Source: Escherichia phage JP4. Taken from it: 64,000 bases of DNA. This document shows, one piece after another, positions 42,592 to 43,643 of the stretch; positions within the stretch are counted from its first letter, which is position 1; every line of letters starts with the position of its first letter. Location: the sequence record PQ330092. The stretch is one strand, 5' to 3'. Position numbers and translations under genes: made by a program. Below the pieces are notes generated by a model, which saw only the letters and a list, made by a program, of their open reading frames with translations, made no database searches and had not been told where the DNA came from.

Positions 42592-43113
42592 ATGTCGAAG
42601 AAGGATGCTTCGAAAAAACATTCAGTACATTTTAGTACTGGTAAAGATAACTGGACAACTCCAAAAGATTTCTTTGAAGAGTTAGATGAGTTATGGGGAT
42701 TTACGCTTGATGCTGCTTGTGTTGATGAGACTGCATTATGTGAGAATTATTTTACACCAAATGATGATTCTCTTTCACAGGATTGGGGAAAGAATATAGT
42801 TTGGTTGAACCCTCCATATAGTGATTTGAAAACATGGTTATCTAAAGCAGTAGATGCGTATAATAAAGGGGCAACTGTATTAATTCTTGTACCATCAAGA
42901 ACGGATACTATAGCCTTTCAGGATTATGCTGCGAAAGTTTGTGATTGTATTTGTTTTATTAAGGGAAGGTTACGATTTGGTATCCCAGAAGAACCAGAGA
43001 AGAAAACAGATTCAGCACCATTTCCTTCGTGTCTGATAGTACTAGATAAGTACTTAACCACTGCTAAAATCAATTATCTTAAATCTCTTGGATTGGTGAT
43101 GAAGAATTTATGA
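42592..43113 (+). CDS. dam: phage Dam-type DNA N6-adenine methyltransferase
   Basis: FTLDAAC and LNPPYS (NPPY catalytic motif IV); size ~173 aa. Confidence 0.8.
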   Translation: MSKKDASKKHSVHFSTGKDNWTTPKDFFEELDELWGFTLDAACVDETALCENYFTPNDDSLSQDWGKNIVWLNPPYSDLKTWLSKAVDAYNKGATVLILVPSRTDTIAFQDYAAKVCDCICFIKGRLRFGIPEEPEKKTDSAPFPSCLIVLDKYLTTAKINYLKSLGLVMKNL

Positions 43114-43643
43114 AAGAAACATGTATATTATCATTTATGAGATGTAACCCAGTCCACAATGGTCATGGTTTAGTTTTTGAAAAGGCCAAAACATTACAAG
43201 AACAGTACAATGCAGATTTGAAAATATATCTAAGCACCAGTACTGATAATATAAAAAACCCGCTTCCTCCTGAATTAAAGATGTATTACACTGAGGGTTT
43301 CTATCCTTCGGTTCAAGAAAACATTTATACTGAAGATAATCTTTTTGATATAATGCGTGAATTAGATGGAAAATATTTAGATGTATTTTTTATATGTGGT
43401 TCAGACCGTATTGATTCTTTTCAGAAAACACTTGACAGTTACAATGGGAAGTTGTATAATTTTTGTAATATAAAAGCAATTCAAGCAGGTATTGACCGCC
43501 AATCAAGTCAATATAGCTCAACACAAATGCGTAACTTCGCAAAAAATGAAGATTTTGATAGTTTTCGTGAGTTTTTACCTGGAAATGACGAGGACTTAAA
43601 AATACAATTATTTGAAGACGTTATAAAATACATGAGGAAATAA
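43110..43643 (+). CDS. HxGH nucleotidyltransferase, NMN/NaMN adenylyltransferase-like
   Basis: SFMRCNPVHNGH (F-x3-P-x-H-x-G-H) and C-terminal SSTQMR (ISxTxxR-type); ATGA overlap with dam. Confidence 0.7.
   Translation: MKETCILSFMRCNPVHNGHGLVFEKAKTLQEQYNADLKIYLSTSTDNIKNPLPPELKMYYTEGFYPSVQENIYTEDNLFDIMRELDGKYLDVFFICGSDRIDSFQKTLDSYNGKLYNFCNIKAIQAGIDRQSSQYSSTQMRNFAKNEDFDSFREFLPGNDEDLKIQLFEDVIKYMRK

Follow-up and report, generated by a model that had tools for sequence, protein, structure and literature searches.

The window, that is, the whole 64-kb stretch of DNA that was analysed, belongs on its sequence to an Asteriusvirus jumbo coliphage of the PBECO4/121Q/UB type, with a match of 99.4% to phage UB. 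On the plus strand, an intrinsic-terminator-like hairpin with a 13-bp stem and a T-run (41379..41407) ends the preceding transcription unit, and approximately 550 nt poor in ORFs lie between this hairpin and the unit that holds a methyltransferase and a nucleotidyltransferase (NTase) as neighbours. The genes described here around the pair form one block on the same strand. An upstream gene of 206 aa (41955..42575; PHROG 16210) is kept upstream of Dam in relatives. It is followed by ORF A (42592..43113; 173 aa), a Dam-type N6-adenine DNA methyltransferase by PF05869 and PHROG 111, and by ORF B (43110..43643; 177 aa), an HxGH Rossmann-like NTase by PHROG 3041/395, its motifs, and an AF2 model. 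The downstream ORF of 97 aa (43646..43939; PHROG 14956) is conserved beside Dam and the NTase; it is 53% identical to K64-1 gp582 and also accompanies the pair in Erwinia phage Kaldavass. Further along the window, Rnl1 of the T4 type (50403-51545) and Pnkp (52369-53301) are encoded. Rfam and tRNA scans around the Dam/NTase locus gave no matches.

Both ORFs were recovered on the plus strand at the coordinates given by the first-pass annotation, a model's reading of the same DNA. Judged by sequence comparison, they are real genes and not chance ORFs, because ORF A matches PF05869 with an E-value of 6e-32, ORF B matches PHROG 3041 with an E-value of 1.2e-55, and orthologues conserve the motifs. 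The pair has been deposited previously: phage UB carries ORF B at 100% identity, and its two genes stand in GenBank as "DNA methyltransferase" and "putative cytitidyltransferase". The locus itself looks like an ordinary early-gene stretch. No discussion of the ORF B gene was found in the jumbo-phage literature, and none was found under "cytitidyltransferase" or "DUF6267".

The orphan Dam methyltransferase and its junction with ORF B

ORF A exceeds the gathering cutoff of PF05869 by a wide margin (111.1 bits against 28.1), and residues 16-156 (141 residues) align with profile positions 7-149 of 169. It matches PHROG 111 with an E-value of 1.9e-56, and PADLOC classifies it as an orphan MTase (E = 9e-33). 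The catalytic NPPY is located at residues 73-76 (nt 42808-42819), downstream of the N-terminal motifs TPKDFF and LDAA (nt 42658-42717). The earlier identification of a Dam-type methyltransferase with NPPY was thereby upheld by both the HMM search and PADLOC. Like the phage Dam proteins of PF05869/TIGR01712, ORF A is a small single-domain orphan with NPPY; it differs in that its score against TIGR01712 (phage_N6A_met) is 92.8 bits, narrowly under the equivalog cutoff of 97.05, and it is hence a family member, not a certified equivalog. A direct search of its sequence against PDB sequences gave no matches. Taken together, the sequence matches identify ORF A as an orphan Dam-family N6-adenine methyltransferase without a restriction partner. 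Characterised PF05869 members methylate GATC, and the phage has this site at only 0.42-0.51 of the expected frequency. By analogy with its family, ORF A would methylate phage DNA, and methylation-sensitive restriction would consequently be blunted.

The TGA stop of ORF A overlaps the ATG start of ORF B in a 4-nt ATGA on the plus strand (43110..43113; ...AATTTATGAAAGAA...), as had been noted at first pass. Co-expression had been suggested on the basis of this coupling. The Dam/NTase gene order is kept in three jumbo-phage genera; Alcyoneusvirus K64-1 and Erwinia phage Kaldavass contain the order Dam, NTase, 97-aa ORF, with proteins 38-56% identical. However, the overlap is commonplace, since 31 of the 154 adjacent plus-strand ORF junctions in the window (20%) show the same ATGA-type overlap of 4 nt, and the junction is interrupted in EC22.5-2, where a mobile-looking CapR/DUF723 ORF of 261 aa is inserted exactly between Dam and the NTase. 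The argument from coupling is therefore weak. An extra ORF of 261 aa also parts the two genes in ECO103 4-12-1. ORF A and ORF B are probably co-transcribed, and they may be translationally coupled, like one in five gene pairs in the window; nothing indicates a substrate shared by the two.

The genomes of K64-1, Kaldavass and the Asteriusviruses are broadly syntenic, which weakens gene order as a link between Dam and ORF B. A dedicated two-gene Dam/NTase system was also considered, and it was ruled out by the frequency of such overlaps and by the split pair in EC22.5-2.

Motifs, fold and family of ORF B

ORF B contains PVHNGH at residues 14-19 (nt 43149-43166) and SSTQMR at residues 136-141 (nt 43515-43532). 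Further motifs are R11, KNPL (43254-43265), GSDR (43398-43409), YNG (43440-43448) and FLPG (43572-43583). Of the signatures reported at first pass, P-x-H-x-G-H and S-S-T-x-x-R are present, but F-x3-P is not, the actual spacing being F9-x4-P14; residue 12, where Phe is canonical, is Cys in ORF B and Phe or Met in most relatives. The catalytic motifs are invariant among the orthologues of 51-98% identity. P14, H19, R100, S136 and R141 do not vary across 37 diverse family members, of which at least 90% also keep R11, N13, G18, N50-P51-L52 and D99. The sequence thus presents a predicted NTP-binding apparatus that is intact, comprising R11, H16-x-G-H19 and S136-S-T-x-x-R141. Simultaneously, the AF2 model (pLDDT 81.8) has a Rossmann-like topology and shows, at the level of a predicted structure, the fold of the HIGH/(H/T)xGH α/β nucleotidyltransferase superfamily. 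By the mechanism that this fold suggests, ORF B would bind ATP or another NTP and join the NMP to an acceptor through the acceptor's own phosphate; PPi would leave, and the product would be pyrophosphate-linked.

Against PF01467 (CTP_transf_like), ORF B itself scores 15.9 bits, under the gathering cutoff of 21; the same model matches 35 of the 37 family members (best E = 4.5e-9), and a precomputed match to PF01467 exists for many homologues. A direct search of the ORF B sequence against PDB sequences gave no matches, and in PADLOC the protein matches no known defence-system component.

The match to PHROG 3041 covers residues 2-176, and PHROG 395 is matched with an E-value of 3.2e-23. A simple homologue search returned close relatives only; the family emerged when 1.84 billion representatives were searched with a profile, which gave 3,668 clusters of 50% identity at E<=1e-3. 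Homologues are found in 558 phage records, mainly of T4-like cyanophages. On these sequence relationships, ORF B falls within a large phage-specific clade (PHROG 3041/395), the core "cytitidyltransferase" of T4-like cyanophages. The deposited annotations of the homologues vary among NaMNAT, NMNAT, PPAT and FAD synthase, and the "cytidyltransferase" label is due to the Pfam superfamily name, not to evidence.

Two groups of relatives can be compared with ORF B. The RaK2-like orthologues (PBECO4, 121Q, UB, K64-1 gp581 and Kaldavass) are of equal length and 38-100% identical, occupy the same slot directly after Dam and before an ORF of 96-97 aa, and show no material difference apart from the additional 261-aa ORF in EC22.5-2 and ECO103 4-12-1. 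In the case of the T4-like cyanophages, the "cytitidyltransferase" (gene cluster 190, PHROG 395), for example S-SSM7 gp194 and S-SCSM1 ORF91, shares the NTase domain and motifs of ORF B at 30-35% identity (E = 1e-13 to 1e-19). These proteins are, however, 360-460 or more aa long, with an N-terminal extension, a C-terminal SH3-like part and a charged tail, and their genes are situated in the uvsX/gp41/mazG region, whereas ORF B is a bare domain adjoining Dam. The C-terminal extensions of the long family members have no match among the neighbouring ORFs of the window. The cyanophage homologues have been detected repeatedly in purified virions (PMC9602691, PMC9146016); some are annotated as NMNAT (PMC9602691), and the "function ... 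remains unclear" according to PMC9146016.

Candidate acceptors of ORF B

We consider it probable that the locus combines an orphan Dam with an intact NTase of an uncharacterised clade, as two early genes for which no common substrate is indicated. As to the acceptor of the NTase, NMN or NaMN, yielding NAD+ or NaAD, is the likeliest single candidate, and it is put forward tentatively. The corresponding reading, which was that of the first-pass annotation, is a stand-alone NMN/NaMN adenylyltransferase that would resynthesise NAD+ from host NMN or NaMN and thereby feed NAD+ consumers of the phage (Sir2-like) or counter NAD+-depleting defences; it is possible, with the chances somewhat against it.

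The closest profile–profile match of the ORF B family is K64-1 gp637, a NadM-type NMNAT-Nudix (hhalign, 95.7%, E = 9e-9). The alignment includes GRxxPxHxGH, with its arginine, and KNP(F/L), but it extends over only about 64 N-terminal, ATP-binding columns (2-69); the C-terminal two thirds of ORF B, presumed to bind the acceptor, do not align with the NMNAT in this comparison. NadM-type enzymes, namely gp637 and the KVP40 NMNAT-Nudix of NARP2, share with ORF B the HIGH-type fold, GR-x-x-P-x-H-x-G-H, KNP(F/L) and SxTxxR. Unlike them, ORF B lacks a Nudix domain and does not adjoin Nampt, and in K64-1 a NadM-type enzyme coexists with the ORF B orthologue. Furthermore, S. aureus NadD (2h29) is matched by the family profile in the PDB with an E-value of 1e-4 over the span 2-149 with large gaps. 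Weak NCBIfam matches of the 37 family members are mostly to NMN/NaMN adenylyltransferase models (NadD in 32, archaeal/NadR NMNAT in 18), and some cyanophage homologues bear that annotation, as mentioned above. Every score, however, lies far under the family cutoffs. Across the 37 relatives, the best E-values against the models for NadD (TIGR00482/NF000840), NadM/archaeal NMNAT (TIGR01527/PRK01153) and NadR (TIGR01526) range from 1.8e-5 to 8.9e-8, and none comes close to a cutoff; ORF B itself reaches 18.7 bits against NadD TIGR00482 (cutoff 112.45) and 19.2 bits against NF000840 (cutoff 150), in both cases as a fragment only. No curated model for an NMNAT, PPAT, FAD synthetase or cytidylyltransferase gives ORF B a score above its threshold. 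By hhalign, E. coli NadR is matched at 75% over 32 columns and NadD at 33%.

The structural comparison points elsewhere. In Foldseek, the ORF B model finds PPAT at ranks 1-8 (E = 6e-5 to 2e-2, TM about 0.5-0.62), NadD at rank 13 and human NMNAT at rank 44, so that the closest solved structures are not NMNATs. Hence, of the NMNAT identity proposed at first pass, the match of the N-terminal 64 columns to the NadM type stands, but the protein fails the NMNAT model cutoffs and Foldseek prefers PPAT. A better alignment to PPAT, raised at the same time as an argument against NMNAT, is borne out by Foldseek but not by hhalign, which favours the NadM-type NMNAT.

The genomic context also bears on NAD+ salvage. 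The absence of a NadV-like partner from the window, observed at first pass, is correct and extends to the complete genome of the close relative EC22.5-2. The Nampt sequences of K64-1 and RaK2, the latter from the supplementary data of the NARP paper, served as tblastn queries; in the 351,992-bp EC22.5-2 genome their best E-value was 0.066 over 31 aa, and K64-1 NMNAT-Nudix found nothing in the same complete genome. The neighbouring genes for dCMP deaminase, Sir2, Nudix and PhoH were recovered from EC22.5-2 in synteny. In phage UB, the syntenic slot is without Nampt, and no Asteriusvirus is present in the top Nampt-bearing phages among the matches listed. In favour of an NMNAT, the Sir2 and Nudix genes of the phage, placed by the genomes of relatives past the window end, lie approximately 25 kb downstream of ORF B. 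K64-1 carries an ORF B orthologue beside Dam and, elsewhere, a canonical NMNAT-Nudix and Nampt module, with which an NMNAT activity of the orthologue would be redundant, as in its relatives. NAD genes are found within 6 kb of a family member in none of 80 IMG/VR loci, and at least 85% of the Synechococcus-phage carriers have no detectable Nampt (375 NTase records, against fewer than 55 Synechococcus records with a Nampt match). The presence of the cyanophage homologues in virions would likewise be odd for a housekeeping-type enzyme (PMC9602691, PMC9146016).

Two of the described pathways can be compared directly. NARP2 reconstitutes NAD+ in phages by Nampt and Nmnat (Osterman et al., bioRxiv 10.1101/2024.02.11.579819), and NARP3 consists of PnuC and NadR (PMC13464706). 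The NARP3-type operon of PnuC and NadR is not at the ORF B locus, where the neighbours are Dam and uncharacterised ORFs, and ORF B has no kinase domain, unlike the bifunctional NadR of NARP3. ORF B would thus stand outside a pathway of the NARP2 or NARP3 type, because no Nampt or NadM was found in the genome of the relative EC22.5-2 and no PnuC or NadR beside ORF B. A role in NAD salvage is accordingly possible but unproven, with no Nampt or NadM partner and no NAD genes at the 80 viral loci; an NMNAT at this locus would work alone on a mononucleotide supplied by the host.

The candidacy of ORF B as the Nmnat partner of NARP2 was rejected, given that EC22.5-2 has no Nampt and that K64-1 has a separate NMNAT-Nudix and Nampt.

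Another cofactor is an unlikely product, that is, ORF B acting as a PPAT-like, FMN-adenylyltransferase-like or sugar-/glycerol-phosphate cytidylyltransferase. The eight leading Foldseek matches would agree with a PPAT, as would the hhalign match to E. coli CoaD (74.9%, E = 2.6e-5), which extends over 142 columns, and the PPAT match of the family profile in the PDB at 3e-4. CoaD/PPAT is also close to ORF B in size (~160 aa), with a full-length but weak profile alignment, and many members of the wider ORF B family have the T-x-G-H form of the motif that is also usual in PPAT. Nevertheless, the two differ by an identity of ~15% and a TM of only 0.55-0.62, and the family-specific KNPL, GSDR and YNGxxYxF are absent from E. 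coli CoaD in the hhalign alignment. FAD_syn and Citrate_ly_lig Pfam models give weak matches in 14 of the 37 members, and PPAT and FAD synthase occur among the deposited annotations, but the NCBIfam models for PPAT (11 of 37) and RibF are matched less widely in the family than those for NMNAT, and in no case above cutoff. ORF B has no match to TIGR01510 (CoaD), its likeness to PPAT being one of structure only, and no specific similarity to glycerol-3-phosphate (GCT/TagD) or HldE-type cytidylyltransferases was found in it. Neither this locus nor the 80 viral loci have genes for CoA, flavin or sugar nucleotides in the neighbourhood, and the name "cytidyltransferase" speaks for the superfamily only.

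It is likewise doubtful that the family is a nucleic-acid-end or RNA-repair NTase, acting in many phages with DUF6267 and a PNK/Zeta-like P-loop kinase, although the neighbourhoods of the wider family offer some encouragement. DUF6267 is an RNA-ligase-like protein, previously unrecognised as such; its sequence had no matches in a direct search against PDB sequences. It is located directly upstream in 29 of the 80 IMG/VR loci and fused in 3, or 32 of 80 (40%) in all, and in all four metagenome contigs it likewise lies upstream, either as the direct neighbour or with one gene between; PHROG 455 is a profile of the DUF6267 and NTase fusion. Meanwhile, 6-7 of 101 long family members contain a kinase domain with GGPGSGKS that matches AAA_33/Zeta_toxin, the same Pfam models that the window's own Pnkp matches, and a free-standing copy is situated upstream in 5 loci. 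In Asteriusvirus, ORF B would cooperate with Rnl1 and Pnkp, encoded in the window 7-10 kb downstream. Against this, DUF6267 is missing in 44 of the 80 loci and has no homologue in the Asteriusvirus genome, filters off included, about 25 genes lie between ORF B and Rnl1/Pnkp, and a kinase joined to an NTase equally fits the logic of NadR (NR kinase and NMNAT). To our knowledge, action on polynucleotide ends is not established for HIGH-type NTases. Quite improbable is the broadest form of this proposal, with the family as the NTase arm of an undescribed phage module of DUF6267 and PNK/Zeta-like kinase and not of cofactor salvage. Such a module might cap or adenylylate nucleic-acid ends that bear a phosphate, or yield an adenylylated sealing intermediate; the gene of Asteriusvirus would then be a reduced form that stands alone and works with Rnl1/Pnkp.

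Meaning for the phage enzyme family

For an orphan Dam beside an intact NTase of its own clade, the pair itself being already deposited, the interest of the locus is that it points to a very widespread phage enzyme family. The clade is distinct, coexisting with canonical NMNATs and unlinked to NAD genes, and many marine phages encode it in linkage with the RNA-ligase-like DUF6267. Naming the family NMNAT or "cytidyltransferase" from the motif alone is unsafe on present evidence. Among anti-phage strategies, depletion of NAD+ is a major one, and three pathways by which phages rebuild NAD+ (NARP1-3) have been described. If the ORF B family is an NMNAT, it would constitute a fourth, stand-alone route to NAD+ across thousands of phages.

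Overlapping methyltransferase and nucleotidyltransferase genes in Asteriusvirus

The window derives from an Asteriusvirus jumbo coliphage. Escherichia phage UB shares 99.4% identity with a 3-kb query spanning the gene pair, the best-matching PBECO4/121Q-type genomes share 92–99%, and the range over all 35 matching records is 77–99%. ORF A (42592–43113, + strand, 173 aa), the Dam-type methyltransferase gene, overlaps ORF B (43110–43643, + strand, 177 aa), the HIGH-motif nucleotidyltransferase (NTase) gene, by 4 nt, the TGA stop of the former lying on the ATG of the latter (...AATTTATGAAAGAA...). 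Both ORFs are present as the first-pass annotation described, together with the ATGA overlap, NPPY (residues 73–76 of ORF A), and the HxGH and SSTxxR signatures of ORF B (P14-V-H-N-G-H19 and S136-S-T-Q-M-R141). The F-x3-P spacing given there is one off; the real motif is F9-x4-P14, with Cys12 in the canonical Phe position. Both genes already exist in public genomes under similar names ('DNA methyltransferase' and 'putative cytitidyltransferase'), the UB copy of ORF B is 100% identical, and the locus itself adds little new.

ORF A matches the Pfam Dam family PF05869 far above its cutoff (E 6e-32, 111 vs 28 bits), which bears out its proposed Dam-type nature. It also matches the PHROG 111 DNA methyltransferase (E 1.9e-56) and the PADLOC 'orphan methyltransferase' (E 9e-33), and falls just short of the TIGR01712 equivalog cutoff (92.8 vs 97.05 bits). 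Because of these family matches and because no restriction gene was found among the neighbouring genes, ORF A is assigned by homology as an orphan Dam-family N6-adenine methyltransferase.

GATC is depleted in the phage to 0.42–0.51 of expectation (0.42x in the window), CCGG stands at 0.59x in the window, and GTAC is in excess at 1.58x (529 vs 335 predicted by trinucleotide frequencies), chiefly within AGTACT or AGTACA; the whole EC22.5-2 genome, from an Asteriusvirus relative, has a similar trend. The GCGC tetranucleotide is wholly absent from the window (0 vs 24 expected), from the complete 352-kb EC22.5-2 genome (0 vs 160 expected), and from the sampled E9.1, K64-1, and Kaldavass loci; PA5oct-like Deifobo (16 vs 9.6) and marine T4-like contigs show no such avoidance. 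The pattern suggests that a target containing GCGC is under absolute counter-selection in RaK2-like jumbo phages of enterobacteria; a literature search found no description of the GCGC absence.

The overlap had been taken to suggest co-expression, for which it is a weak argument, and it does not mark a dedicated two-gene system: of 154 neighbouring + strand ORF pairs in the window, 31 (20%) overlap by the same 4 nt, and in EC22.5-2 and, judged by alignment length, ECO103 4-12-1, a 261-aa ORF with CapR/DUF723 domains is situated exactly between Dam and NTase (EC22.5-2 record 91151–92975, syntenic to window 43110). This zinc-ribbon-type ORF uses the ATGA of Dam as its own start and resembles a mobile gene of the free-standing, homing-endonuclease-like kind, and its insertion indicates that direct coupling is dispensable. 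The order Dam, NTase, and 97-aa ORF is preserved in the broadly syntenic genomes of K64-1, a relative in Alcyoneusvirus, and Erwinia phage Kaldavass. In K64-1, the triad consists of gp580 (Dam), gp581 (NTase, 56% identical to ORF B), and gp582 (the 96-aa ORF), with an identical 4-nt overlap. Dam lies beside the ORF B family at no other locus sampled, including 80 IMG/VR loci.

Ahead of the gene block, at 41379–41407, stands a strong hairpin resembling a terminator (13-bp stem and T-run); a single early transcript therefore plausibly spans the 206-aa ORF, both genes of the pair, and the ORFs that follow. Within 41379–41955, a stretch of approximately 550 nt after the hairpin is poor in ORFs, relatives annotating only tiny minus-strand ORFs there; Rfam and tRNA scans of it gave no match, and it may have a regulatory or promoter role. 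Inside the ORF B coding sequence, at 43432–43460 (+), lies a sigma-70 consensus that is perfect (TTGACA-17 nt-TATAAT, 12/12) and directed at downstream genes, and an 11/12 match is found at 44155–44183. In addition, tandem small ORFs of similar size, paralogous by look, occupy 44861–46270 and 28815–35514, including five of ~90–100 aa with a common N-terminal '(N/L)..(I/F)Q.TYK.LYDL'-like start and a further row of a dozen of 180–200 aa each. An RNA/DNA end-repair set is situated 7–18 kb downstream of ORF B, consisting of a T4 Rnl1-type RNA ligase (50403–51545), Pnkp (kinase plus HAD phosphatase, 52369–53301), an ATP-dependent DNA ligase (59601–61019), and a metallophosphoesterase (61039–61830).

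Fold and candidate acceptors of ORF B

ORF B matches PHROG 3041 'cytidyltransferase' (E 1.2e-55) and PHROG 395 (E 3e-23), and its profile matches 3,668 clusters at E≤1e-3 among 1.84 billion representative proteins. By tblastn the family occurs in 558 phage records, mostly T4-like cyanophages, in which it is the long-known 'cytitidyltransferase' gene. In an alignment of 37 diverse members, P14, H19, R100, S136, and R141 are invariant, and R11, N13, G18, S42, N50-P51-L52, K57, G97, D99, Y111-N112, G127, and R130 are at least 90% conserved, giving the consensus FGRxNPxT/HxGH ... SxSxDxxKNPL ... GSDR ... YNGxxYxF ... SAG.R ... SA(S/T)xxR. Judged by this conservation, the HIGH-superfamily NTP-binding apparatus is intact and under selection, which argues that ORF B is an enzyme, as predicted from sequence. 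By these comparisons, ORF B is a predicted nucleotidyltransferase of HIGH type, intact, and belongs to a phage clade that is widespread and uncharacterised.

Its assignment as NMNAT-like stands in part. NadD models reach 18.7–19.2 bits on ORF B against cutoffs of 112–150, PF01467 stays below cutoff (15.9 vs 21 bits, E 0.015), and PDB sequences searched with ORF B gave zero matches. The weak NCBIfam matches of the 37 members are mainly to NMN/NaMN adenylyltransferase models (NadD 32/37, archaeal and NadR types 18/37, best E 9e-8), with PPAT weakly matching 11/37 and FAD synthetase 10/37, none near its cutoff in any member. With the family profile, PDB sequences gave MJ0951 (HIGH_NTase1) at 1.4e-5 over the C-terminal motif only, S. 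aureus NadD at 1.2e-4 and PPAT at 2.9e-4 over the full length, and archaeal NMNAT at 4e-3 over the N-terminal only. In hhalign, the same profile aligns with K64-1 gp637, a NadM-type NMNAT-Nudix (95.7%, E 9e-9, 64 columns), E. coli NadR (75%, E 2.4e-5, 32 columns), CoaD (75%, E 2.6e-5, 142 columns), and NadD (33%, E 4.5e-4, 23 columns). GRFQIPHIGH of gp637 lies opposite the family GRxNPxTxGH, and its KNPFT opposite KNPL; the ATP-binding half thus looks most like NadM-type NMNATs. However, Foldseek with the AlphaFold2 model (mean pLDDT 81.8) prefers PPATs, which fill ranks 1–8 (E 6e-5 to 2e-2, TM 0.5–0.6), NadD and human NMNAT following at ranks 13 and 44, and the whole modelled shape looks most like PPAT. 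The acceptor-binding half, in short, has no clear match. Automated names of homologues differ accordingly (NaMNAT, NMNAT, PPAT, FAD synthase).

ORF B would move an NMP from an NTP onto a phosphorylated acceptor. NMN or NaMN is the leading single candidate for the acceptor, though far from assured; a nucleic-acid end or repair-linked acceptor is rather unlikely, a PPAT/FMNAT/cytidylyl-type small molecule is equally doubtful, and something else accounts for the remainder.

NAD-related genes in Asteriusvirus and its relatives

In K64-1, a canonical NAD module lies ~25 kb from the triad and comprises gp637 (PF01467 E 2.6e-11 plus NUDIX), the Nampt gp638, Sir2, and two genes annotated Nudix. Since K64-1 has this separate gp637, the ORF B orthologue is not the NMNAT partner of Nampt where a NARP2-type pathway (NAD+ rebuilding via Nampt and Nmnat) exists. 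An entry in the NARP paper supplement gives the Nampt of RaK2 as 'Nmnat-associated' (bioRxiv 10.1101/2024.02.11.579819). Nampt is found at 52–57% identity in relatives such as CBB, GAP32, BF, Munch, and EJP2, and none of the Nampt matches listed is from Asteriusvirus.

Between dCMP deaminase and PhoH, Asteriusvirus retains a module made up of Sir2, a Nudix resembling Nudt16, and a protein with a cREC_REC domain; it is located at UB 124392–130949, ~25 kb downstream of ORF B and just beyond the window. By tblastn against the whole 351,992-bp EC22.5-2 genome, dCMP deaminase, protease, Sir2 (63%), Nudix (54%), the cREC-domain protein (61%), and PhoH (80%) are in synteny, and gp637 and gp638 counterparts are absent (best E 0.61 and 0.066), as they are from the corresponding slot of UB. 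Between sister genera, the NMNAT-Nudix and Nampt pair was either cleanly lost or else gained. The noted lack of a NadV-like (Nampt) partner therefore extends to the whole genome of a relative. With Sir2/Nudix retained and gp637/gp638 absent, the phage has NAD-related enzymes and no mononucleotide-producing enzyme. A NARP2/NARP3-type pathway is excluded for this genome, in the case of NARP3 on the lack of a kinase domain in ORF B and on the genes next to it. Of the 375 Synechococcus-phage records that have the NTase, at least 320 likewise show no detectable Nampt.

The phage NTase family and DUF6267

Purified virions of S-SCSM1, S-CBWM1, and S-SZBM1 contain cyanophage homologues of ORF B, the function of which is called unclear by the authors (PMC9602691, PMC9146016). 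Approximately two-thirds of the 150 best representatives have 300–1,200 aa and an N-terminal NTase, and 92 C-terminal extensions fall in one cluster, composed of a small beta-rich segment, an acidic linker, and a basic helical tail. A few long members carry DUF5824, an intein, or an AAA_33/Zeta_toxin kinase having a GGPGSGKS P-loop.

Among upstream neighbours and fusion partners of the family, DUF6267 (PF19782) is the commonest, and PHROG 455 is a fusion profile of DUF6267 and NTase. In all four long metagenome contigs sampled, a DUF6267 gene lies upstream of the NTase: two have it immediately next to the NTase, one has a single gene in between, and the fourth has it as fragments at a greater distance. 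Among the 80 IMG/VR loci, 29 have DUF6267 as the direct upstream gene and 3 have it as a fusion; a free-standing AAA_33/Zeta-like kinase is upstream in 5 and MazG in 10, and no Dam, Nampt, NadM, Sir2, Rnl1, or Pnkp homologue occurs within 6 kb in any. DUF6267 comprises more than 4,000 phage proteins; it matched no PDB sequence, and a literature search on it found nothing. Its alignment contains invariant K64-x-D-G, E362-G-F-V-A, and K374-x-V-x-R, and it looks like a covalent nucleotidyltransferase of RNA-ligase type. Its absence from Asteriusvirus, the S-SSM7 neighbourhood, and PA5oct-like Deifobo indicates that the link with the NTase is clade-specific. The remaining interest of ORF B lies in the family-level question and in this link with DUF6267.
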